A DNA stretch of 64,000 nt, taken from contig NC_086097.1 in NCBI RefSeq assembly GCF_963921235.1, forward strand, positions 148,182,001 through 148,246,000. Reading direction: 5' to 3'. Source of the stretch: Mobula hypostoma. Its lineage: Eukaryota. Below are positions 2,290-62,135 of this stretch, piece after piece. The notes beneath the pieces were generated by a model. It was not told the DNA's origin and ran no database searches. It saw nothing but the letters and a program-made list of their open reading frames with translations. The position numbers and the translations under genes were made by a program. The first letter of the stretch is position 1. Every line of letters starts with the position of its first letter.

Positions 2290-5200
2290 GATCAGAAGGT
2301 ATAGAATCATTGTGGGTAGAGCTAAGAAACTGTAAGAGTAAAAAGACCCTGATTGGATTTACATACAGAACCCCAAACGGTAGTAAAGATGTGGTCTACA
2401 AATAACAACAGGAGATAGAAAGTGCATGTGAAAACGGCAATGCTATGATAGTCATGGGGATTTCAATAAGCAGGTAGACTGGGAAAATCAAGCTGGTGCT
2501 GGGTCCCAAGAAGGGGAATTTCTAAAATGCCTACAAGATGGTTTTTTAGAGCAGCTTGTGGTTGAGCCCGTTAGGGGATCAGCTATTCTGGATTGGGTGG
2601 TGTGCAATGAACCAAAACTGATTAGTGAGCTTAAGGTAAAATAACTCTTAATATGATAGAATCACAAACAAGAGAAAATTTGCAGATGCTGGAAATCCAA
2701 GCAACACACACAGAATGCTGGAGTAACTCAGCAGGCCAGGCAGCATCTATGGAAAAGTGTACAGTCAACAATTTTGGCCAAGACCTTTGGCAGGACTGGA
2801 GGAAAAAAGATGACGACTAGATTTAAAAGGTGGGGAGAGGGGAGAGAGAAACACAAGGTGGTAGATTGAAACTTGAAGGGGGAGGGATGCAGTAAAGAGC
2901 TGGGAAGTTGACTGGTGAAAGAGAAGGGGGAGTCTGATAGAAGAGGACAGGGCATGGAAGAAAGAAATTGGGGGAGGAGCACCAGAGGGAGGAAAAGGGC
3001 GGCAAGGAGATAACGTGAGAGAGGGAAAAGGGAATGATGAGGGAGTGGGGGCATTACTGGAAGTTTGAGAAGTCGATGGTCATGCCATCAGGTTGGAGAC
3101 TACCTAGACGGAATATAAGCTATTGTTCCTCCAACCTAAGTGTGGCTTCTTCACGACAGTGGAGGAGGCCATGGATAGGCAGAGTGGAATGGGAATGGGA
3201 AGTGGAATTAAAATGGGTGGCCACTGGGAGATCCTGCTTTTTCTGGTGGACAGAACATAGGTGCTCAACGAAATGGTCTCCCAATCTACATTAGGTCTCA
3301 TCAATATACAGGAGGCCACACCGGGAGCACCGGACACAGTACATGACCCCAACAGACTCACAGGTGAAGTGTTGCCTCGCCTGGAAAGACTGTGTCGCTC
3401 CCTGAATAGCAGCGAGGGAGGAAGTGTAGGGATATGTGTAGCACTTGTTGTATTTGTAAGGATAAGCACCAGAAAGGAGATCAGTGGGGAGAGACGAATG
3501 GACAAAGCAGTTGTAGAATGAGCAATAGAATTCACCCTGCAATTTGAGAAGGAGAAGCAAAACTTTGATGTATCAGTATTACAGTGGAGTAAATGGACTT
3601 ACAGAGGCATAAAAGAAGAGCTGAGCAAAATTGATTGGAAGGGAACACTAGCAGGGATGACGGCAGAACAGCAATGGCTGAAATTTCTGGGAGCAATTGA
3701 GGAGGCACAGGACATATATATATATATATATTCCAAAGAAGAACAACTATTCTAAAGGCAGGATGATACAATTGTGGGTGACAAGAGAAGTCAAAGCTAA
3801 TATAAAAGCTGAAGAGTGGGCATATAATACAGCAAAAATTAGTGGGAAGTTAGAGGATTGGCAAGCTTTAAAAGAAAACAACAAAAAACAACTTAGAAAG
3901 TCATAAAAAAGGAAAAAATAGAAAGCAAAGGTAAGCTACCCTATAGAGGATATCAAAATTTTCTTCAGATATATAAAGTGTAAAAGAGACACAAGAGTAG
4001 ATATTGGACTTCTGAAAAATGATGCTAGAGAGGTAGTAATGGGGGACAAAGCAGATAAACAGAATAAGTATTTTGCATCAGCCTTCACTGTGGAAGACAC
4101 CTGTGGAATGCTGGAAGTTCGAGAGTGTCAGGGGACAGAACTGTATGAAGTTCCCATTACTATGTAGAAGGTTCTTGGAAAAAAGAAAGGACTGAAGGTA
4201 GATAAATCACCTGGACCAGATGTATACTCCCTAGGGTTGTGAAAAAGGTGGCTGAAGAGCTTGTGGAGGCATTAATAATGATCTTTCAAGAATCAATTGA
4301 TTCCGGCATGGTTCTGGAGGACTGGAAAATTGCAAATGTCACTCCACTCTTCAAGAAGGAAGAGAGACTGAAGAAAGGAAATTATAGGCCAGTTAGTCTG
4401 ACCTCAGTGGTTGGGAAGATATTGGAATTGATTGTAAGAGAATGCGGCTTCAAGGAACTTGGAGGCACATGATAAAACAGGCCATAGTCAGCACAGTTTC
4501 CTCAAGCAAAAATCTTGCCTGACAAATCGGCTGGAATTCTTTGAAGAAAATACAAGCAGCATCAACAAAGGAGACTTGGTGGATGATGTGTACTTGGATT
4601 TTCAGAAGGCCTTTGACAAAGTGTCACATGGGAGGCTGCTTAACAAGAACCTATGGTATTACAGAAAAGATACCAGAATGGATAGAACATTTACTGACTG
4701 GCACGGGGCAAAGAGTGGGAATAAATGGAGTTTTTTCTGGTTGGCTGCCAAGGACTAGTGGTGTTCCACGGGGGTCTGTGTTGGGACCACTTCTTTTTAT
4801 GTTATATGTCAATGATTTGGATGACGGAATTGATTGCTCTGTTGTCCACTTTGGAGATGATATGAAGATAAGTTGGGTGCAGGTAGTTTTGTGGAAGTAG
4901 AGAGACTATAGAAGAACTTAGACAGATTAGAAGAATCCTCATGCAGGATTCCCAAAAGATTAATTTGCAGTTTGAGTCTGTGGTGAGGAAGGCAAATGCA
5001 ATATTAGCATTCATTTTGAGAGGACTAGAATATAAAAGCGAAGGTGTAATGTTGAAATTTTATAAAGCACTGGTGAGGCCTCACTTGGAGTATTGTGAGC
5101 AGGCTTGGGCCCTTTATCTAGGAAACGATGTGCTGAAACTGGAAAGGTTTCAAAGGAAGTTCACAAAAATGATTCCATAATTGAAATGCTTGTCATATGA

Positions 5201-5940: not shown

Positions 5941-7912
5941 TTATGAGAATAGTATTGGACCTGAAAATTTGTCTATCTGTAGAGACTTAGGATAAAGGAA
6001 TTATGTAATATGTAATCGATGTTGAGGTTTTGGAACTGTACAATCTTTGTTGATTACCTTTTAGGGGATGAAGAATTACTTACGCTTTTAAGATTGAAAG
6101 AGATAGGTAGTTGTCCAATAAGCTGGGGTTTATGTGGTTTATGGAAGGAAGCAAATTGATGGGGCTTCTCATATTCTCTCATGCCTAATCTAAATGTCAG
6201 CTATCTCATACCTGGAGTGTCTAACCCAAGGCTCATGGCTTTTGGAACCCTGCCAATTTGATCTTTATTTGGACAAATTAGTGATTTCTGTTTGAATGTT
6301 GATTCTTGTGCCTTATGGGCTATATAACAGAGGAAAGTATTTTGGTACATCTGTATTTTTTGTATCATTGTTAGATAGGTCTTCAAGCACGCCAAGATAT
6401 GTTAGTGAAAACAACTTGAGACAGGTGCTAGTTAATGGGAACCTCGCTCCAAATAATATGTTACCCACTTAATACTCCAGGGCATTCAACTACAAACCCA
6501 GAAGTTGTAGCATGTCCTAAGCTATGTCATTCCCTATTATCTGTGCATGTCTCTCACTATCATGCAAGAATTTCTCTGTTTCTCCTTTCCAGACACCTAT
6601 TAAGCCTCTTTCTGCTTGCAATGTTGAACAGTGATTTGAGGTGAAGAAAAACTGCAGAGCTATTTGGCATCGAGGCAGTTTGCATCAAGGGATTTGAGTT
6701 GCTCAGGCAGTTTATTTGATAATCTCACTCTTCTGCTTGATTTCAAGAGTCAAAGGGTCGCGTCCATTGGGTGGAATGTTTGTATTACACTAGCTGCAGG
6801 TGAAGTGTTGGACTGAACTGAACTTGTCACCAGAGATGCACATACAATATACATCATACAGCACAACTACATTAGGCTATGACCTGAGGGGATTCATCAC
6901 ACACGCTTTATTCTTTCTTCGTAAGGAAAGCTAACTTAAAGGAAATTCTTCAGGTCTCAGCCTGTCTTTAGGGTCTTTGTGAATGCAGAAAATGATGAAG
7001 ATGTTGGCACTGTACAAAGATGCATCACACTCTCACTAATGTAATATAAGTGCAAGAACCAGTGACTGATGCTGACATTGGCACTTAGAGGGTCTAGTCA
7101 GGAGGTTCTAACAACATAAGGAGAAGCCCCTCCTTCCATCACTTCTGCCCCTAAAGGAGTTCTGCTGCTAATGGAATCTTAGCTGCTCTCTGGAGAAAAG
7201 GAAATTCTGACAATGGCATGCAGCAGCCAGTATCTCTTCTGTTAAGATCAAGAATCAGTGAGGAAGACATTGAAAGGACTGACAAAACAGTGAAGGACAG
7301 GGCCTTCAATGATTTAGAAAGTCAAGACAAGGAAAGGTAAGGGCAGAGGTAACTGCACAGTAATGAAGCAAACAGGGAAAAGGGAAATCTGGTAGCAGAA
7401 GGTTTGGCTAGGTTTTTCAGAGGAAATTAGAAAAAAGAGCCATGAATTATGCTTTTAAAAAGCAGGAGGAGGAAGTGATCTGATAAGGTAAAGAGGCAGA
7501 GTGGCTGGAAACCAAGGAAAGAAGGAAAGACTCTTTGGTTACATGAAGTGGGGAGGGGTAGAACCAACATGGACCCCACTTATTGGTGGAAGTGAGGTGG
7601 GTGGGAGCAGGGGATTCTTTTAGGAAGTGTACCGGCATTAATTGTGAAGTTAGAAACAATTTTAACTGAGAGTAATTGGAGGATGAGGGCAATTATGAAT
7701 TGGCTAAGTGGGCAGAGATTAGATTTAATTTAGGGAGTGGGAAGAACAAGGAGTTAAAAGAACTGCAATGTTTACATAGAATATAAAAAATAATGTCACT
7801 GGAAAGCTCAGCTCAAACATCAGCTTCCAGGAAACTCCATGTTAAGTATCTGAGATTTTCCTTTAGACTTAGATATTCTTTTTTCTTTAATCTCCACAGC
7901 TGAAATAATTAG

Positions 7913-10080
7913 AGAGCAACTGGCCAATGTTGACTGGAAAGGGACACTAGCAGGTAGGATGGCAGAGCAGCAGTGGCTGGAGTTTATGCGAGAAGTGAGG
8001 AAGGTGCAAGACAGATATGTTCCAAAAAAGAAGAAATTTTCGAATGGAAAATTTGAATGGATGCAACCGTGGCTGACAAGAGAAGTCAAAGCCAAAGTTA
8101 AAGCAAAGGAGAGGGCATACAAGGAAGCAAAAACTAGTGGGAAGACAGAGGATTGGGAAGTTTTTAAAAGCTTACAAAAGGAAACTAAGAAGGTCATTAA
8201 GAGGGAAAAGATGAACTATGAAAGGAAGCTAGCAAATAATATGAAAGAGGATACTAAAAGCTTTCTCAAGTATATAAAGAGTAAAAGGACAGGTGAGAGT
8301 AGATATAGGACTGATAGAAAATGATGCTGGAGAAATTGTAATGGGAGATAAGGAGATGGCGGAGGAACTGAACGAGTATTTTGCATCAGTCTTCACTGAG
8401 GAAGACATCAGCAGTATACCGGACACTCAAGGTGGCAGGGAAGAGAAGTGTGCGCAGTCACAAGTATGACAGAGAAAGTACTCAGGAAGCTGAATAGTTT
8501 AAAGGTAGAAAAAATCTCCAAGACCAGATGGAATGCACCCTCATGTTCTGAAGGAAGTAGCTGTGGAGATTGCGGAGGCATTAGCGATGATCTTTCAAAA
8601 GTCGATAGATTCTGGCATGGTTCCGGAGGACTGGAAGATTGCAAATGTCACTCCGCTATTTAAGAAGGGGGCAAGGAAGCAAAAAGGAAATTATAGACCT
8701 GTTAGCTTGACATCGGTGGTTGGGAAGTTGTTAGAGTCGATTGTCAAGGATGAGGTTACGGAGTACCTGGAGGCATATGACAAGATAGGCAGAACGCTGC
8801 ATGGTTTCCTTAAAGGAAAATCCTGTCTGACAAACCTATTACAATTTTTTGAGGGAATTACAAGTAGGCTGGACAAGGGAGATGCAGTGGATGCTGTATA
8901 TTTGGATTTTCAGAAGGTGTTTGACAAGGTGCCACACATGAGGCTACTTAACAAGATAAGAGCCCATGGAATTACAGGAAAGTTACATACGTGCATAGAG
9001 CGTTGGCTGATTGGCAGGAAACAGAGAATGGGAATAAAGGGATCCTATTCTGGTTGGCTGCTGGTTACCAGTGGTGTTCCACTGTTCTGGGGCTGCTTCT
9101 TTTTACATTGTACATCAACGATTTGGATTATGGAACAGATGGCTTTGTGGCTAAGTTTGCTGATGATACGAAGATAGATGGAGGGGCCAGTAGTGCTGAG
9201 AAAACAGAGAGTCTGCAGAGAGACTTGGATAGATTGGAAGAATGGGCAAAGAAGTGGCAAATGAAATACAATGTTGGAAAGTGTATGGTTATGCACTTTG
9301 GCAGAAGAAATAAACGGGCAGACTATTATTTAAATGGGGAGAGAATTCAAAACTCTGAGATGCAACAGGACTTGGAAGTCCTTGTGCAGGATACCCTTAA
9401 GGTTAACCTTCAGATTGAGTTGGTGGTGAAGAAGGCGAATGCAATATTGGCATTCATTGCTAGAGGAATAGAGTATAGGAGCAGGGATGTGATGTTTAGG
9501 CTCTATAAGGTGCTGGTGAGACCTCACTTGGAGTACTGTGGGCAGTTTTGGTCTCCTTATTTAAGAAAGGACGTGCTGACGTTGGAGAGGTTACAGAGAA
9601 GATTAACTAGAATGATTCCAGGAATGAGAGGGTTAACATATGAGGAACGTTTGTCCGCTCTTGGACTATATTCCTTGGAGTTTAGAAGAATGAGGGGGGA
9701 CCTCATAGAAACATTTCGAATGTTGAAAGGCATGAACAGAGTGGATGTAGCAAAGTTGTTTCCCATGATGGGGGAGTCTAGTATGAGAGAGCATGACTTA
9801 AAGATTAAAGGGTGCCCATTCAGACAGAAATGCGAAGAAATTTTTTTAGCCAGAGGGTGGTGAATCTATGGAATTTGTTGCCACGGGCGACAGTGGAGGC
9901 CAAGTCCTTGGGTGTATTGAAGGCAGAGATTTATAGGTATCTGAGTAGCCAGGCCATCAAGGGTTATGGTGAGAAGGCAGGGGAGTGGGACTAAGTGGGA
10001 GAATGGATCAGCTCATGATCAAATGGCAGAGCAGACTCGATAGGCTGAATCGCTGACTTCTGCTCCTTTGTCTTATGGTC
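7913..10080 (+). mobile_element. 5'-truncated CR1 LINE (RT), inserted at the left terminus of Academ copy 1
   Basis: ORFs 7959-8324, 8533-9177 and 8991-9863 carry the RT motifs including KFADDTK; 3' tail ..tgctcctttgtcttatggtc abuts the Academ TAG terminus. Confidence 0.95.
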
Positions 10081-20830: not shown

Positions 20831-23212
20831 ATGGATCAATTTTTAGTGAGAAAACGATCTCATCCAGAGGAATCAGTGATGTTTCAGCCTGAGCCTGTCT
20901 TAATTGAAAGTGATATGCAGAAAGAATTAAGTGGGGATGAGGATGACAGCAGTTCATGGAAAGAGTGTGAGGGCGAAGTAAAGGAACAAGAAATGGAGCG
21001 GAATTGGAAGAGAACGTGGATGAAGCTGCTGTTAGTGCTAGTGTGCTAGTGGGAATACTGTTAGCGATGTTAGCCAGCAGCCTGAGGAAGGACCCCGTTG
21101 GCCAGCATTGAAAATGTACCTTTCGCAACAGTTTGGCGATCAGCAAAGGAGTTTTATTCGTGCCTGGTTTGACCTGTACTCCTGACTGGAATACTCAATC
21201 ATGAAAGATACTACGTTCTGCTTCGCATGCAGGCATTTCCTGTGTGGAGGACATGGGTTCCATTCTGACTCTACCTTCACTGTCACCGGTTACCGCAACT
21301 GGCGGAAAGCTACAACAGCTTTCAAAACCCACCATGTAAGTGTAGCTCGTAAGTTTGCTATGGAGACATGGGCCGAATTCAGATTGAAAAAACAAGACGG
21401 TTCAAGATTGGGAAATATGCTTGATAAAGGACATGCAAAGATTGTCCAAGAAAATCATGAGTATATGAGAGCAGTGGTTGAGTCTCTACGCTATATTGCG
21501 CGCCAAGGCATTGCCCAGCGAGGACACCAGGAGAATGATGGATCTGGCAATAGAGGAAATTTTGTTGAGTTGCTCAGTATAATTGGGTAGTTTGATAAGA
21601 CTGTAGCTAAAAAAATAGAGGACAATCCTGGAAATGCAAAAAACACCCATCACGATATCCAAAATGAAATTAGCGGTATTATGGCAGATATGATCAGACG
21701 TCAAATAAGTGCAGAAATCAAGGAGGCTGGACATTTTGCCATCATGGTGGACGAAAGTAAAGACTTGAGTAAAAAGGAGCAAATATCAGTGGTGGTGCGG
21801 TATTTGAATAACAAAACAGTGCTTGAAGAATTCTTGCACTTCACTCCAACAGAAGAGTTGGACGAAGAGTCACTTCTTAAAAGCATTGAACAGACATTCG
21901 CCCAGTGTGTTATTGATAAGAACGTGTGTATAGGTCAGTGCCATGACGGGGTGGCTGTGATGTCCACGTGCAATAACGGGGTACAAGAGAGGTTCAGGAA
22001 AGAGGTCCCACAGGCATTATATACACACCGCCATGCTCACAGACTTAACCTTGTTTTAGTGGATGTTGTGAGCAATGTACAACAAGCGGGTGAGTTTTTT
22101 GAAACTGTGCAGCTGCTTTACAATTTCTTTTCAAACTCTGTTGCCCACGATCTTTTCACGAAGAAACAGAGAGAACTGGAATCAACTGCACAGCCTGTGG
22201 AGTTGAAGAAATTGTCAGATACACACTGGGCATGGCGGTATACAGCTTTGTGGACTATAAGGAAATCACTCCCTGCCATTCTAGCTACACTACAGGATAT
22301 TATGGGTCAACCAAATGCACGGAGGAAAACGGAGGCCAGAGCTGTAAATGGACTGATTGACGAGCAGTTTGCTTTACTTCTCACTCTGTTTGAGGATTTA
22401 TTCCAAGTCACCAAGTTCATGTCAGACCAGCTACAATCTCCCAGTTTGGAGCTTTCATCCGCAGTGGACTTGGCTCAGTCTGTTATCGATGCACTCTCAG
22501 CAAAACAGGGAGAGGAATCATGGAGTGAAATTCAGGTAAGAGCTATGGACCTGTGCGTCAAGGCCGGTATACAGAGCAGAACACATGAAAGGAGACAGGC
22601 CCAGCCACCCCGCCACCTACATGGTTTTGTTGTGGAGGCCCAAACCGAACACACACCTGTCACATCCTCTGATCTTCATAAGAACTGTTTCTATCTGGTT
22701 ATAGACAGACTTCTAACTGAAATGAAAAGACGGTTCTCAATTGAGACTGGGGGTGTTCTGAGTGGAGTCTCAGCATTGAGTCCCAAACACAAGCTCTTCC
22801 TAGACAAAAACTGTCTTTGGCCAGTGGCCCAATGCTATGGAGTGACTGAAGTGAACCTGACTGCAGAACTACATCAGGTTCGGCGTCTGCTGGAAACAAA
22901 ACAAAAGCAAGGACAGACAGTGAATGACACAGTGGAATTTCTAGCTCTAATGAGACCCTACCGCGATGCATTTATAGATTTATACAAACTGATCTGCATA
23001 TCACTGACTCTGCCTGTGACATCTGCCTCATGCAGAGTTTCTCTTGCCTCAGACGCCTCAAAAACTACCTAAGGAATAGCAGCAGCAATGCACGGAACAG
23101 CAAGTTGGCCCTGTTGGCCATAAACAGCCGGAGGACCAAGGCACTTGATATCCAGAAAATCATTGATGCTTTCGCCACCAATCACAACAACAGACGGATT
23201 GTGCTTCTCTGA
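20831..23212 (+). pseudogene. hAT transposase pseudogene
   Basis: FCFACRHF, GNFVELL, IMVDESKD, GQCHDG, HAHRLNLV, SDTHW, LTLPVTSASC..SFSCLRRLKNYLR; frameshifts near 21040 and 23035, stops at about 21184 and 21588. Confidence 0.93.
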
Positions 23213-25131: not shown

Positions 25132-25432
25132 AGTCTGAGTGGGAGTGCCGAGAAAGAGATTTTTGAAATTTTCGTTATTTTTTTTCTCCAACGGCTTTCT
25201 GAGAGGCGGGACTGCGCAGGCGTGTGACGTCGGGCAGTGCAGCGCGGCAGATTTAAAAGGGCAGACATCCTGCTTCGGGTTTGATTCGAAGAAGGAGTCT
25301 GAGAGTCTGAGTGGGAGTGCCGAGAAAGAGATTTTTGAAATTTTCGTTATTTTTTTTCTCCAACGGCTTTCTGAGAGGCGGGACTGCGCAGGCGTGTGAC
25401 GTCGGGCAGTGCAGCGCGGCAGATTTAAAAGG
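25132..25432 (+). promoter_or_regulatory. Tandem 172-bp CR1 5' UTR monomers (putative internal promoter)
   Basis: 25132-25260 repeats essentially identically at 25304-25432; each unit has GGCGGG, TGCGCAGGCG, TGACGTC and TTTAAAA motifs. Confidence 0.7.
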
Positions 25433-25594
25433 AACAAAGCCTCATAGAGCGGGCAGCGTAGTTTGCAGGTGGCGGAGTGAGCCGGGAGCAGAGTGAAGAC
25501 TTAAGGGCTTCGGCTCACCGGGCTTAGGCGGAAGCGGGCGAGGCGAGGAAGGTTTGACATTCATTTTCTGTTGCTATTTGAGGAGAGGGGCATT

Positions 25595-26530
25595 ATGACT
25601 GTGAGGGCAGTTTGCTGTTCTTGGTGTCGGATGTGGGCGGCCCTGGAGTCTCCAAGCCTCCCGGACGTCTACATCTGCGCCAAGTGCATCGAGATGCAGT
25701 TCCTAAGGGACCGCGTTACGGAACTGGAGCTGCAGCTCGATGACCTTCGTCTGGTCAGGGAGAGCGAGGAGGTGATAAAGAGGAGTGGAAGGCAGGTGGT
25801 CACACCGGGGCCACGGGAGGCAGACAAGTGGGTCACGGTTAGGAGGGGGAAGGGGAAAAGTCAGGTGATGGGGAGTACCCCGGTGGCTGTGCCCCTTAAC
25901 AACAGGTACTCCTGTTTGAGTACTGTTGGAGGGGACAGCTTACCCGGGGGAAGCGACAGTGGCCCTGCCTCCAGCACAGAGTCTGGCCCTGTAGCTCAGA
26001 AGGGTAGGGCAAGGAAGAGGAGGGCAGTTGTGATAGGGGACTCGATAGTAAGGGGGTCAGATAGGCGATTCTGTGGACGCAGTCCAGAGACCCGGATGGT
26101 AGTTTGCCTCCCTGGTGCCAGGGTCCGGGATATTTCTGATCGTGTCCAAGATATCCTGAAGTGGGAGGGTGAGGAGCCAGAGGTCGTGGTACATATAGGT
26201 ACCAATGACATAGGTAGGAAAAGGGACGAGGTCCTGAAAGGAGAATATAGGGAGCTAGGAAGGGAGTTGAGAAAAAGGACCGCAAAGGTAGTAATCTCGG
26301 GATTACTGCCTGTGCCACGCGACAGTGAGAGTAGGAATGCGATGAGGTGGAGGATAAATGCGTGGCTGAGGGATTGGAGCAAGGGGCAGGGATTCAAGTT
26401 TTTGGATCATTGGGACCTCTTTTGGTGCAGGCGTGACCTGTACAAAAAGGACGGGTTACACTTGAATCCTAGGGGGACCAATATCCTGGCAGGGAGATTA
26501 GCGGGGGCTACTGAGGTGACTTTAAACTAG
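25595..26530 (+). CDS. CR1 ORF1p: zinc finger/coiled coil + SGNH esterase (311 aa, uninterrupted)
   Basis: CxxC..CxxC then a leucine heptad; SGNH blocks GDSIV, PGA, HIGTND, DGLH. Confidence 0.9.
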   Translation: MTVRAVCCSWCRMWAALESPSLPDVYICAKCIEMQFLRDRVTELELQLDDLRLVRESEEVIKRSGRQVVTPGPREADKWVTVRRGKGKSQVMGSTPVAVPLNNRYSCLSTVGGDSLPGGSDSGPASSTESGPVAQKGRARKRRAVVIGDSIVRGSDRRFCGRSPETRMVVCLPGARVRDISDRVQDILKWEGEEPEVVVHIGTNDIGRKRDEVLKGEYRELGRELRKRTAKVVISGLLPVPRDSESRNAMRWRINAWLRDWSKGQGFKFLDHWDLFWCRRDLYKKDGLHLNPRGTNILAGRLAGATEVTLN

Positions 26531-29500
26531 AATGGTTGGGGGGTGGGAATCAAATTAAAGAGGCTAGGCGTGAGGAGGTTAGTTCACAACAGAGGGATGG
26601 GAACCAGTGCAGAGAGACAGAGGGGTGTAAAGTGAGCGTAGAAGCAAAAAGTACAAAGGAGAAAAGTAAAAGTGGCAGGCCGACAAATCCAGGGCAAGCA
26701 TTAAAAAGGGCCACTTTTCAACATAATTGTATAAGGGCTAAGAGAGTTGTAAAAGAGCGCCTGAAGGCTTTGTGTGTCAATGCAAGGAGCATTCGTAATA
26801 AGGTGGATGAATTGAAAGTGCAGATTGTTATTAATGATTATGATATAGTTGGGATCACAGAGACATGGCTCCAGGGTGACCAGGGATGGGAGCTCAACGT
26901 TCAGGGATATTCAATATTCAGGAGCGATAGACATGAAGGAAGGGGAGGTGGGGTGGCGTTGCTGGTTAAAAAAGAGATTAACGCAATAGAAAGGAAGGAC
27001 ATAAGCCGGGAAGATGTGGAATCGATATGGGTAGAGCTGCGTAACACTAAGGGGCAGAAGACGCTGGTGGGAGTTGTGTACAGGCCACCTAACAGTAGTA
27101 GTGAGGTCGGAGATGGTATTAAACAGGAAATTAGAAATGTGTGCAATAAAGGAACAGCAGTTATAATGGGTGATACAATTATAACAAGCAGTTATAATCT
27201 ACATGTAGACTGGGTGAACCAAATTGGTAAAGGTGCTGAGGAAGAGGATTTCTTGGAATGTATGCGGGATGGTTTTTTGAACCAACATGTCGAGGAACCA
27301 ACTAGAGAGCAGGCTATTCTGGACTGGGTTTTGAGCAATGAGGAAGGGTTAATTAGCGATCTTGTCGTGAGAGGCCCCTTGGGTAAGAGTGACCATAATA
27401 TGGTGGAATTCTTCATTAACATGGAGAGTGACATAGTTAATTCAGAAACAAAGGTTCTGAACTTAAAGAGGGGTAACTTTGAAGGTATGAGACGTGAATT
27501 AGCTAAGATAGACTGGCAAATGACACTTAAAGGATTGACGGTGGATATGCAATGGCAGGCATTTAAAGGTTGCATGGATGAACTACAACAATTGTTCATC
27601 CCAGTTTGGCAAAAGAATAAATCAAGGAAGGTAGTGCACCCGTGGCTGACAAGAGAAATTAGGGATAGTATCAATTCCAAAGAAGTAGCATACAAATTAG
27701 CTAGAGAAAGTGGCTCACCTGAGGACTGGGAGAAATTCAGAGTCAGCAGAGGAGGACAAAGGGCTTAATTAGGAAGGGGAAAAAAGATTATGAGAGAAAA
27801 CTGGCAGAGAACATAAAAACAGACTGTAAAAGCTTTTATAGATATGTAAAAAGGAAAAGACTGATAAAGACAAATGTAGGTCCCCTGCAGACAGAAACAG
27901 GTGAATTGATTATGGGGAGCAAGGACATGGCAGACCAATTGAATAATTACTTTGGTTCTGTCTTTACTAAGGAGGACATAAATAATCTTCCAGAAATAGT
28001 AAGGGACAGAGGGTCCAGTGAGATGGAGGAACTGAGTGAAATACATGTTAGTAGGGAAGTGGTGTTAGGTAAATTGAAGGGATTGAAGGCAGATAAATCC
28101 CCAGGGCCAGATGGTCTGCATCCTAGAGTGCTTAAGGAGGTAGCCCAAGAAATAGTGGATGCATTAGTGATAATTTTTCAAAACTTGTTAGATTCTGGAC
28201 TAGTTCCTGAGGATTGGAGGGTGGCTAATGTAACCCCACTTGTTAAAAAAGGAGAGAAAAACCAGGGAATTATAGGCTGGTTAGCCTAACGTCGGTGGTG
28301 GGGAAACTGCTAGAGTCAGTTATCAAGGATGTGATAACAGCACATTTGGAAAGCGGTGAAATGATCGGACAAAGTCAGCATGGATTTGTGAAAGGAAAAT
28401 CATGTCTGACGAATCTCATAGAATTTTTTGAGGATGTAACTAGTAGAGTGGATAGGGGAGAACCAGTAGATGTGGTATATTTGGATTTTCAAAAGGCTTT
28501 TGAGAAGGTCCCACACAGGAGATTAGTGTGCAAACTTAAAGCACACGTTATTGGGGGTAAGGTATTGGTGTGGGTGGAGAATTGGTTAGCAGACAGGAAG
28601 CAAAGAGTGGGAATAAATGGGACCTTTTCAGAATGGCAGGCGGTGACTAGTGGGGGTACCGCAAGGCTCAGTGCTGGGACCTCAGTTGTTTACAATATAT
28701 ATTAATGACTTGGATGAGGGAATTAAATGCAGCATCTCCAAGTTTGCGGATGACACGAAGCTGGGTGGCAGTGTTAGCAGTGAGGAGGATGCTAAGAGGA
28801 TGCAGGGTGACTTGGATAGGTTGGGTGAGTGGGCAAACTCATGGCAGATGCAATTTAATGTGGATAAATGTGAAGTTATCCACTTTGGTGGCAAAAATAG
28901 GAAAACAGATTATTATCTGAATGGTGGCCGATTAGGAAAAGGGGAGGTGCAACGAGACCTGGGTGTCATTATACACCAGTCATTGAAAGTGGGCATGCAG
29001 GTACAGCAGGCGGTGAAAAAGGCGAACGGTATGCTGGCATTTATAGCGAGAGGATTCGAGTACAGGAGCAGGAGGTACTACTGCAGTTGTACAAGGCCTT
29101 GGTGAGACCACACCTGGAGTATTGTGTGCAGTTTTGGTCCCCTAATCTGAGGAAAGACATCTTTGCCATAGAGGGAGTACAAAGAAGGTTCACCAGATTG
29201 ATTCCTGGGATGGCAGGACTTTCATATGAAGAAAGACTGGATGAACTGGGCTTGTACTCATTGAAATTTAGAAGATTGAGGGGGGATCTGATTGAAACGT
29301 ATAAGATCCTAAAGGGATTGGACAGGCTAGATGCGGGAAGATTGTTCCCGATGTTGGGGAGGTCCAGAACGAGGGGTCACAGTTTGAGGATAGAGGGGAA
29401 GCCTTTTAGGACCGAGATTAGGAAAAACTTCTTCACACAGAGAGTGGTGAATCTGTGGAATTCTCTGCCACAGCAAACTGTTGAGGCCAGTTCATTGGCT

Positions 29501-29575
29501 ATGTTTAAGAGGGAGTTAGATATGGCCCTTGTGGCTACAGGGGTCAGGGGGTATGGAGGGAAGGCTGGGTTCTGA
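26521..29575 (+). pseudogene. CR1 ORF2 (APE endonuclease + RT) with several frameshifts
   Basis: NARSIRNK, GITETWL, YRPPN, LDWVL, SDHN; RT GVPQGSVLGP, KFADDTK; frameshifts near 27740, 28255, 28652 and 29072. Confidence 0.93.
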
Positions 29576-30145
29576 GTTGGATGATCAGCCATGATCATAA
29601 TAAATGGCGGTGCAGGCTCGAAGGGCCGAATGGCCTACTCCTGCACCTATTTTCTATGTTTCTATGTTAATATTTGCTCCACATAGCCTGCAACATTCCC
29701 ATGTATGTCTCTTAACCAATCCAGACCAGTTTAAGACTATCATATTTCAAATGTCAAATTATATCTTTAATAAATGCATAACTCTCTTTGGTATTCATTT
29801 ACTTTGGACTTGAAACTATTATGGAAAAACAAGACATTCGCAATAAAATTAAACCTTCTTAAGGCAGAGTACTTAATGGACTGTTGGTGTGCAATTGTCT
29901 ATCCCTTTTTGGAAACAGGAATAGCATTATTAATCACCTATCAACCAATACCACTCCTGTTCCAAATGGTTGTTAAAAAATAGTTCCGTTGTTATTTCAA
30001 ACATTGCATCATTGAACAACCTTAGAGTAGCAATATAATCAAAGATTGAAGGTCGATATATCTATCGCACAACTTTAATTATACACAAATTGCCACCGCA
30101 GATTTCACAAGAGAGCCAATAATCTAGAATTTGTCAGAATTAAAA

Positions 30146-30875
30146 GACAATAGACAATAGACAATAGACAATAGGTGCAGAAGTAGACCATTCGGCCCTT
30201 CGAGCCTGCACCACCATTCTGAGATCATGGCTGATCATCTACTATCAATACCCGGTTCCTGCCTTGTCCCCATAACCCTTGATTCCCCTATCCATAAGAT
30301 ACCTATCTAGCTCCTTCTTGAAAGCATCCAGAGAATTGGCCTCCACTGCCTTCTGAGGCAGCGCGTTCCACACCTCCACAACTCTCTGGGAGAAGTTCCT
30401 CCTCAACTCTGTCCTAAATGACCTACCCCTTATTCTTAAACCATGTCCTCTGGTACTGGACTCTCCCAGCATCTGGAACATCTTTCCTGCCTCTATCCTG
30501 TCCAATCCCTTAATAATCTTATATGTCTCAATCAGATCCCCCCTCAATCTCCTTAATTCCAGCATGTACAAGCCCAGTCTCTCTAACCTCTCTGCGTAAG
30601 ACAGTCCGGACATCCCGGGAATTAACCTAGTGAACCTACGCTGCACCTCCTCCACAGCCAGGATGTCCTTCCTTAACCCTGGAGACCAAAACTGCACACA
30701 ATACTCCAGGTGTGGTCTCACCAGGGCCCTGTACAAATGCAAAAGGATTTCCTTGCTCTTGTACTCAATTCCCTTTGTAATAAAGGCCAACATTCCATTA
30801 GCCTTCTTCACTGCCTACTGCACTTGCTCATTCACCTTCAGAGACTGATGAACAAGTACTCCTAGATCTCCTTGT
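30146..30875 (-). mobile_element. CR1 3' fragment with (TCTATTG)n tail
   Basis: ORF 30245-30811 KKANGMLAFI..VRPHLEYC..GIKGYG; caataga repeats at 30148-30175. Confidence 0.93.
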
Positions 30876-60454: not shown

Positions 60455-62135
60455 CTCACTGTGTAAAACCTACTTTGGTTGGTCCTCTCAAAGTGCAACA
60501 CCTCAGACTTCTTTGCATTAAATTCCATCAAAAATTTTTCACCTCTTTTTTTTTAGCTGATCCACATCCTGCTGCAAGCTTTGTTGGTCTTCCTTGCTGT
60601 CCACTACATCTCTGATCTTGGTGTTGTCCGCAAATTTGCTGATCGAGTTAACCCCATTGTCATCCAGATTGTTGATATCGATAACAAACAACAACAGAAG
60701 GAGCACTAATCTCTGCGGCGCTCCACGAGTCACAGGCCTCCAGTCAGAGAAGCAATCCTCGGCTACCACTCTCTGGCTTCTCCCACAAAGCCAATGTCCA
60801 ATCCAATTTACTACATCATCTTGAATGCTAGGAGACTAAACCTTCTTGACCAATCTCCCATGAGGGATCTTGTCAAATGTCTTGCTGAATTCCATGTAGA
60901 CAACATTCACTGCCTTTCCTGGTAATATCCTGGAAAATCACGATAAGCTTGGTTAGACACAACCTACCACACTGAAAGCCATCCTGGCTATCTCTAATCA
61001 ATCCTTGTCTATACAAATACTCATGCATCCAGTCTCTTAGAATACCTTCCAATAACATTCGAACTTCTGATAACAGGCTGAACTACTTATAATTTCCTGA
61101 TTTATTCTTGGAGTTTTCCTTAAACAGCGGAACAACATTAGCTATCCTCCAATCTTCCAGGATCTCACTAATCACTAAGGATGATTTAAATATTCTGCTC
61201 AGGTCCCTTCAATTTCTGCACTTGCCTCCCACAGGACCTAAGGGAACATTTAGTCAGGAGATTTGTCCACCCTGATTTGCCTCATCGCAGCAAACATTTC
61301 TTCCTCTGTAATCTGTACGGTGTCCATGACCACGCTACTGCTTTGCCTCACTTCTATAGACCTCTGTGTTTATCTTTTGAGTAAATTTGTTGTTATTCAG
61401 TCATTAAGTCGTCCAAATCTTTGTGACCTCATGGACTTTTCCATAAGGTTTTCTTGGCAAATTACTGGAGTGGGTTGCCATTTCCTTCTCCAGTGGACCA
61501 TATTTAGTCTGATCTCTCTGCCATGACCTGTCCATCTTGAGTAGCTCTATATGGTATAGCTTATAGTGTCACTGAGATACACAAGCCCCCTCACCACGAC
61601 AAGGTAATGGTCCATGAGGAGGTCCGAGCAGATACGATGCAAAAAAATGCATTTAACATCTCCCCCATCTCTTTTGGCTCCATGCACAGATTACCATTCT
61701 GATCTTTTAGAGGACCAAATTTGTCCCCTGCAATCCTTTTGCTCTCAACATATCTGTAGGAGCCCTTAAGATTCTCCTTCACCTTGTCTGCTAAAGCAAC
61801 CTAATGCCTTCTTTCAACCCTCTTGCTTTCTTCCTTAAGTGCTCTCTTGTATTTCTTATACTCCTCAAATACCTTTTTTTCCTACCTGCCTTTACATGCT
61901 CTTTACTTTTTTTTATATCCTTAACCAGAACCTCAATATCTCTCAAAAACTAAGGTTCCCTAAATTTGTTTTCCTTCCCTTCTATTCTGACAAGCAAATA
62001 CAAGCTTTGTACTCTCAAAATTTCAATTTTGAATGCCTCTCATTTACCAGGTACAGCTTTGCCAGAAATCAGCCTGTCCCAATCTACACTTGCCAGTCCC
62101 TTTCTGATGCCATCAAAATTGGACATTCTCCAATT
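60455..62135 (-). mobile_element. CR1 ORF2 fragment
   Basis: SDWRPVTRGAPQ..ISKFADNTKI; GLIRDSQDGF; EPKEMGEMLN. Confidence 0.85.
61388..61622 (-). mobile_element. BovB(RTE)-like short non-autonomous element
   Basis: tactggagtgggttgccatttccttctccag and cagtc..agtcgtcc..tctttgtgacc.catggac resemble BovB/Bov-A termini; (CAA)-type tail; interrupts the CR1. Confidence 0.65.

Follow-up and report, generated by a model that had tools for sequence, protein, structure and literature searches.

Conserved slippery heptamer at the ORF1-ORF2 junction of esterase-type CR1 elements: a probable site of programmed -1 frameshifting

CR1 dominates among the retrotransposons of most vertebrates (PMC13343379), and the translation of ORF2 in long interspersed nuclear elements (LINEs) having two open reading frames (ORFs) is described as an open question (PMC3894237). 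The closest described elements are vertebrate CR1s with an esterase ORF1 (PMC13343379; CR1_7, type IVB in PMC4120745), which share with the element studied here the esterase ORF1, an ORF2 with APE endonuclease and reverse transcriptase (RT), and a microsatellite 3' tail. Our element is a near full-length CR1-type LINE copy at 25132..29668 of a 64,000-nt stretch of Mobula hypostoma DNA (NCBI RefSeq assembly GCF_963921235.1, contig NC_086097.1, positions 148,182,001 to 148,246,000 of the forward strand), hereafter the window; all features of the element are on the + strand. By its sequence it is an ordinary esterase-type CR1. The copy is dead, with ORF1 intact and ORF2 broken, and the junction between the two ORFs, which is the subject of this work, is intact. 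The consensus library of PMC13343379 holds the same junction motif, and no frameshift is mentioned in the available text and supplement of that paper or in the available part of PMC4120745. PMC5009743 gave 0 matches to CR1 in the first 300,000 of its 449,034 characters. No description of a CR1 frameshift was found in the literature searched; the founding CR1 papers of 1997-2003 (including those on turtle and chicken) and the Repbase and Dfam notes lie outside it and may already propose one.

Frameshifting is described in several systems to which this junction can be compared. For Dictyostelium TRE5-A and TRE3-A, a figure legend in a review states that a -1 frameshift is required for ORF2 (PMC5911963). 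These are also APE-type elements without long terminal repeats, of another host kingdom and with another ORF1 type, and the comparison is with the legend of the review and not with a slip sequence. Viral X_XXY_YYZ signals have the same heptamer pattern, the same phase, and a replicative enzyme in the -1 frame (PMC3542737). The canonical signal requires a downstream structure, which in viruses lies 5-9 nt from the heptamer (PMC3542737), whereas at the CR1 junction no such structure was found and the zero-frame stop adjoins the heptamer. In arteriviruses, the -2/-1 frameshift in nsp2 is stimulated by nsp1beta together with PCBP at a C-rich motif, the spacing of 9-11 nt being critical (PMC4937337).

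ORF1 of the window copy (25595..26530, 311 aa) ends with the codons ACT TTA AAC TAG, which places the heptamer T_TTA_AAC (26521..26527) in X_XXY_YYZ phase directly 5' of the stop codon (26528..26530; TAG here, TAA or TGA in other lineages). Coronaviruses use U_UUA_AAC. A sequence-only reading of the window had proposed this arrangement, with ORF2 in the -1 frame open across the APE domain, and the sequence bears it out: the -1 frame is stop-free over 26515-27768 and spans the Pfam Exo_endo_phos match. A TGA in the -1 frame two codons upstream of the heptamer (26512..26514) excludes a start of ORF2 farther upstream and restricts entry to at least 26515. The first ATG of the -1 frame is at 27166, within the IMGD motif inside the endonuclease as that reading had it, at codon 216 from the heptamer rather than at about 210. 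The three ATGs in 26480-26800 (26532, 26597, and 26780) are all out of frame. The endonuclease motifs NARS, ITETW, and YRPP, which we take to be catalytic, lie upstream of Met 216 and would be lost if translation began there. Between the junction and the APE part of ORF2 (26755..27768) there is a linker of ~75 codons (26531..26754), in which the -1 frame is open and free of ATG while the other two frames have 5 and 8 stops. TTTAAAC occurs 11 times in the window, counting both strands, and only the junction copy is followed by a stop.

A DNA search of the element's own genome for its own family gave 1,576 candidates; 40 of these were scored, and the 30 best were compared. TTTAAACTAG is present in 28 of the best 30 copies, 25 have codon 216 as their first in-frame Met, and 10 are open across all 626 codons compared. 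The query included the heptamer, so the result shows only that the layout is family-wide and not the decay of a single copy. The sibling copy L185 has 1,015 open codons from the heptamer, again with the first Met at 216, and two copies of other lineages, L188 and L193, have 1,039 and 997 open codons.

Conservation beyond the window extends to the heptamer and its phase, to the stop next to it, to the -1 frame that is open and has no early ATG, and to a GGGGG at 10 nt. Loci were pooled from own-genome protein searches, 20 further stretches, and one metagenome scan (50 loci), giving 161 after removing 13 duplicates. The last ORF1 helix, which is present in 136 of the 161, was used as anchor; the anchor queries omit the final seven residues, so that the heptamer is excluded from them. 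Near the anchor, 94 of 110 own-genome loci have the exact heptamer, 13 have it with one mismatch, and 3 deviate more; of 21 metagenome loci, 16 have it exactly, 3 with one mismatch, and 2 not at all, 5 more metagenome loci having ended early. With a stricter rule, by which the heptamer has to abut the ORF1-frame stop, the count is 96/120. We then picked 17 copies by hand, one per lineage and favouring intact ones, whose ORF1 ends are 18-81% identical in protein. TTTAAAC is found in 16 of these picks and GTTAAAC in one, each followed by TAG, TAA, or TGA; G_TTA_AAC is a tolerated slippery variant (PMC3542737). Of 101 copies, 83 have the endonuclease in the -1 frame and 18 have it in other frames, as indels would give. 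Linkers are non-homologous and of ~28-99 codons, and their -1 frame is stop-free in 14 of the 16 picks with an endonuclease match. A search of the available PMC13343379 consensus library for heptamer plus stop gave 23 matches, a number without denominator, of which 18 are at an ORF1 end by eye and 5 elsewhere. The labels of the 18 read as alligator, crocodile, bearded dragon, bullfrog, coelacanth, bowfin, elephant shark, bony fish, sharks, and rays.

Such conservation might in principle reflect the protein alone, if the esterase needed a Leu-Asn end written in AT-biased codons and ORF2 started at a non-AUG codon near the endonuclease. Leu and Asn are indeed invariant or nearly so at the alignment end, and an in-frame CTG is found at 26761, at the start of the endonuclease. 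However, only TTA, AAC, and a preceding T are used at the junction, against 14%, 34%, and 24% in the background of the same ORFs (TTA 35/244 Leu codons, AAC 31/91 Asn codons, third-position T 609/2,496), which gives the heptamer codons a joint chance of ~1.2% per lineage. Different residues precede Leu-Asn in the 17 picks (T, A, G, C, S, Y, H, and others), their codons retaining T in third position, and Leu is not written with a fixed codon in the nearby DGLHL motif. The length of the tail after the DGxH motif ranges from ~22 to 39 residues, and even so LN or GN directly precedes the stop. In addition, a linker as long as that of the window family is open in only 0.4% of shuffles, and the G run downstream keeps its bases though the encoded residues change. 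The codon-use and linker results largely refute this explanation and we consider it very improbable.

Two observations on individual loci are added here. In the L051-L070 lineage a G run stands just before the heptamer and varies in length by copy; in several copies ORF1 thereby enters the ORF2 frame already in the DNA. The metagenome loci L104 and L108 have an esterase end without heptamer, are C-rich downstream, and show no endonuclease match behind ORF1; they are either rearranged copies or another lineage.

A G-rich tract begins at 26534, after a spacer of 6 nt as had been pointed out from the sequence. The conserved part of it is GGGGG at 26538-26542, 10 nt past the heptamer, followed by GGG at 26545-26547; we regard 26538..26547 as a candidate stimulator. 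GGGGG at +11 to +15 is found in 15 of the 17 picks, 77 of 94 own-genome loci, and 13 of 15 metagenome loci. The run opens with the last base of one codon and closes with the first base of another, both for variable residues, which places the constraint on the RNA. The downstream region is C-poor and 59-80% purine in the picks (72% in the window family). A G-quadruplex was considered as a general stimulator and rejected: the two-tier form is predicted in only 5/17 picks, and it is not general because three picks are without a second G run. The arterivirus nsp2 site is similar, by analogy only, in having a short linear motif exactly 10 nt past the slip site and no RNA structure (PMC4937337). It differs in that its motif is C-rich and bound by PCBP, whereas the CR1 motif is G-rich with a hypothetical protein binding, and only the -1 frame is open.

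In order to follow the junction in more distant ORF1s, we used protein endings. Homologues of ORF1 come from sharks, rays, coelacanth, frogs, reptiles, and birds, and the closest named one among those listed is from a ray (95%). Leu-Asn-stop ends 74 of the 84 homologues that have the DGxH motif, out of 120 listed. A profile search gave 150 representatives, of which 92 have DGxH 20-45 residues from the end. The final tripeptide fits X_XXY_YYZ in 63 of these 92, compared to 298 of 5,520 internal tripeptides. Endings in LN (54), GN (9), and KN (1) correspond to the codon pairs XXA-AAC with U, G, and A as X. The residue before GN (Gln in 10, otherwise Val, Lys, or Ala) can end in G in 13/13 cases and cannot end in T in 11. 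A clade of 38 sequences includes the GN proteins; in it the pattern is matched by 20 at the end and by a further 6 one residue earlier (26/38), compared to a background of 2.5%. By back-translation, this clade switches among G_GGA_AAC, A_AAA_AAC, U_UUA_AAC, U_UUU_UUA/C, and G_GGU_UUY; a subclade of 10 has endings such as GFLG, GFFR, and LGFC, fitting U_UUU_UUA/C or G_GGU_UUY. In a fused copy of another distant lineage (P0172), FKLVGKGG leads into the endonuclease, with the same -1 reading and glycines at the same distance. A pattern that is kept while its letters change is what a slip site would predict, and not what a protein motif or a reinitiation signal would.

Further searches concerned DNA of the GN-ending lineage. 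None was found in viral contigs, prokaryote genome contigs, or plasmids, and own-genome searches identified none among best matches of 39-48%, 10 matching loci being left unanalysed. No fused GN form was seen among longer proteins, where 3 matches were uninformative; no read-through version of the GN protein was present among 18 cluster members compared; and one alignment (A1) had no match in viral contigs. As separate observations, six distant esterase ORF1s (P0249, P0261, P0273, P0277, P0279, and P0301) have KN or QN inside a longer tail and not at the stop, and this group may have its slip site farther upstream of the stop. Five sequences (P0020, P0026, P0068, P0070, and P0323) are CR1 ORF1 named as bacterial hydrolase, ribosomal protein S24, transmembrane protein 204, or prefoldin, likely as a result of contamination or gene-model errors.

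On these results, programmed -1 frameshifting is probably the best reading of the junction. A minority of ribosomes would move into the -1 frame on U_UUA_AAC, immediately 5' of the ORF1 stop, and make a single esterase-linker-endonuclease-RT fusion, of ~1,320 aa in intact copies, while the remaining ribosomes would terminate and release the ORF1 protein (ORF1p). The fusion junction would read EVTLN-LEWLG by tandem slippage or else EVTLK-LEWLG. The pause might perhaps come from the adjacent stop in combination with the G run, which would serve as a linear binding site or form a weak G-quadruplex, rather than from a pseudoknot. Such a layout would set a high ratio of ORF1p to ORF2p, like that of Gag to Gag-Pol, and by inference the junction would work like a retroviral or nidoviral -1 frameshift. 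A more general statement would be that in esterase-type CR1s from sharks to birds, as well as in distant relatives with other heptamers, a structure-free -1 frameshift makes the RT fusion, triggered by the adjacent stop and by a protein on the GGGGG exactly 10 nt downstream, and that this is a cellular-genome counterpart of protein-stimulated viral frameshifting; we offer it tentatively and find it doubtful as a whole. If true, a conserved frameshift would answer the question of ORF2 translation in a form testable in 25 nt. It would also mean that ORF2 annotations begin at a wrong position, that a membrane-targeting esterase tethers the endonuclease-RT in the way that Gag does Pol, and that the junction must be retained in constructs for CR1 retrotransposition assays. 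The fixed distance of the G run without a fold points to an unusual stimulator.

Several results weigh against frameshifting at this junction. The evidence is sequence evidence throughout, from which translation, the slip itself, and the fusion protein are inferred. The fold of the 93 nt past the heptamer is not more stable than that of shuffled sequence (z 0.27, with 121/200 shuffles as good), and no stable downstream fold was found in the 17 picks (z -1.71 to +0.80), that is, no hairpin or pseudoknot 5-9 nt downstream in an analysis that did not model pseudoknots directly. Since the canonical structural feature was not found, the term coronavirus-type, under which the signal had been introduced, is valid for the heptamer alone, and we do not file the junction as such an element. 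A long-range partner of the G run was not found either: in the 12 of 15 longer stretches that showed the junction pattern, the best duplexes differ by family and there is no covariation. The lineages share ancestry, so their counts are not independent and represent long conservation rather than 17 trials. The same caution is needed for the distant endings. In the only tree built, from 73 hand-chosen esterase cores with tails excluded, LN, GN, and KN need just 3 changes in total, which means few independent switches of the ending. The GN, KN, and FL/FF endings are back-translated protein with no DNA or ORF2 behind them, and 29 of the 92 representatives and 12 of the 38 in the distant clade do not fit the pattern. 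The residue before LN can end in T in 81/83 cases, which is a weak test as positions -6 and -7 give 80 and 79/83.

The remaining points of this kind concern the serious rival, termination-reinitiation, in which ribosomes stop at the end of ORF1 and restart in the -1 frame at an AUG or a non-AUG codon, with ORF2p as a separate protein. SART1, where reinitiation has been demonstrated and uses UAAUG, and L1, where it has been proposed, are also two-ORF LINEs with low-level ORF2 (PMC3894237, PMC1965478), and one ray lineage of CR1 has TAATG. An in-frame ATG is near the stop in 4 of the 17 picks (codon 4 in L161, as an overlapping TAATG, and codon 5 in L071, L074, and L078), and 4 more have one in mid-linker. 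The two sequence conditions that had been named as refuting the proposal both went in favour of it, as the heptamer keeps its phase across lineages and no in-frame ATG precedes APE in the window family; these 4 related lineages do have an ATG right after the stop. L1 ORF2 functions without its AUG (PMC1965478), and because L1 tolerates this loss, an open ATG-less frame alone cannot separate slipping from reinitiation. Reinitiation also accounts for the open linker, and a near-cognate TTG is in frame at 26536. However, it leaves unexplained both the fixed synonymous bases upstream of the stop and the switch among slippery alphabets. Unlike SART1 and L1, most CR1 lineages examined are without ATG at the stop, and a slippery heptamer precedes the stop in every one. 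Close lineages differ in their codon at this ATG position (ATG, TCG, GTG, TGG, TTG); the window family has no in-frame AUG at or near the ORF1 stop, and the ATG nearest to the stop in the window copy (26532) is out of frame. The UGGGA motif of the termination upstream ribosome-binding site (TURBS) is found 40-90 nt upstream of the stop in 1/17 picks, and 117 nt upstream in the window copy. We therefore regard reinitiation as unlikely for the junction in general, and mixed slipping and reinitiation as possible in the ATG-bearing lineages. The proposal that the fusion arises by programmed frameshifting rather than reinitiation is supported at the level of sequence, with reinitiation conceivable in some CR1s.

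The motif could also act in DNA or RNA processing, either as a TATA-like TTTAAA with a G-rich element giving an ORF2-only transcript, or as part of a splice acceptor joining upstream sequence to ORF2. TTTAAA resembles a TATA box, and the 5' untranslated region (UTR; 25132..25594) has a 129-nt unit twice (25132-25260 and 25304-25432; in the alignment to L185 a second high-scoring segment pair, of 100%, falls at 25132-25260), the units being 172 nt apart and each with the TATA-like ATTTAAAAG at its end. Upstream of ORF1, TTTAAACTA is found in two shark consensus sequences from the literature (PMC13343379), and CAG|G precedes the G run in several lineages. Against this, an ORF2-only RNA of the window family would still be without AUG before codon 216, the family has no AG ahead of the G run in its purine-rich region, and a promoter would have no need for a constant reading phase or for an uninterrupted -1 frame across the motif. 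Read data from four runs, used as contigs, contained 10 joints, 0 of them with GT..AG ends, which carries no weight for or against expression or splicing. We find hardly any probability left for a processing motif, and retain programmed frameshifting as the preferred reading. As to the 5' repeat units themselves, they have been reported for elements without ORF1 (PMC13343379), unlike here, where they are in an element with ORF1.

The rest of the element is as follows. It is 97.7% identical to sibling L185 over 25236-29668 and has Pfam matches for esterase, APE, and RT. ORF1 starts at the ATG at 25595 and has a Cys-rich N-terminus and an SGNH/GDSL esterase at ~26030-26476 (PF13472, E 4.6e-17, the match being to GDSL families in Pfam), ending in EVTLN. 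ORF2 has PF03372 (APE) and PF00078 (RT). Compared to L185, an 18-nt insertion in the APE part (27175-27192) keeps the frame; the frame is lost near 27743, the first of four frame-breaking indels (the others are near 28251, 28652, and 29071), and 6 nt are absent near 29568. The remaining ORF2 with the RT (27769..29575) is consequently in several frames, with PF00078 in two pieces. CR1 elements typically end in short tandem repeats and not in poly(A). The window copy fits this, with a 3' microsatellite tail at 29647..29668 made of 2.9 copies of the unit CTATGTTT. Poly(A) tails are reported to be confined to Zenon (PMC13343379).

Other sequences were noted in the window. A second CR1 piece, 5'-truncated, is on the opposite strand at 30145-30814 (-), with a 7-nt microsatellite tail unit compared to 8 nt in the main element. 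Older endonuclease-region fragments of other CR1 lineages, with 33-57% protein identity, are at 2295-2641, 3525-3873, 7902-8168, and 61935-62135. Finally, 21591-23072 (+) is a stop-to-stop open frame of 493 codons, which presumably resembles a hAT-type transposase or a ZMYM1-like derivative.

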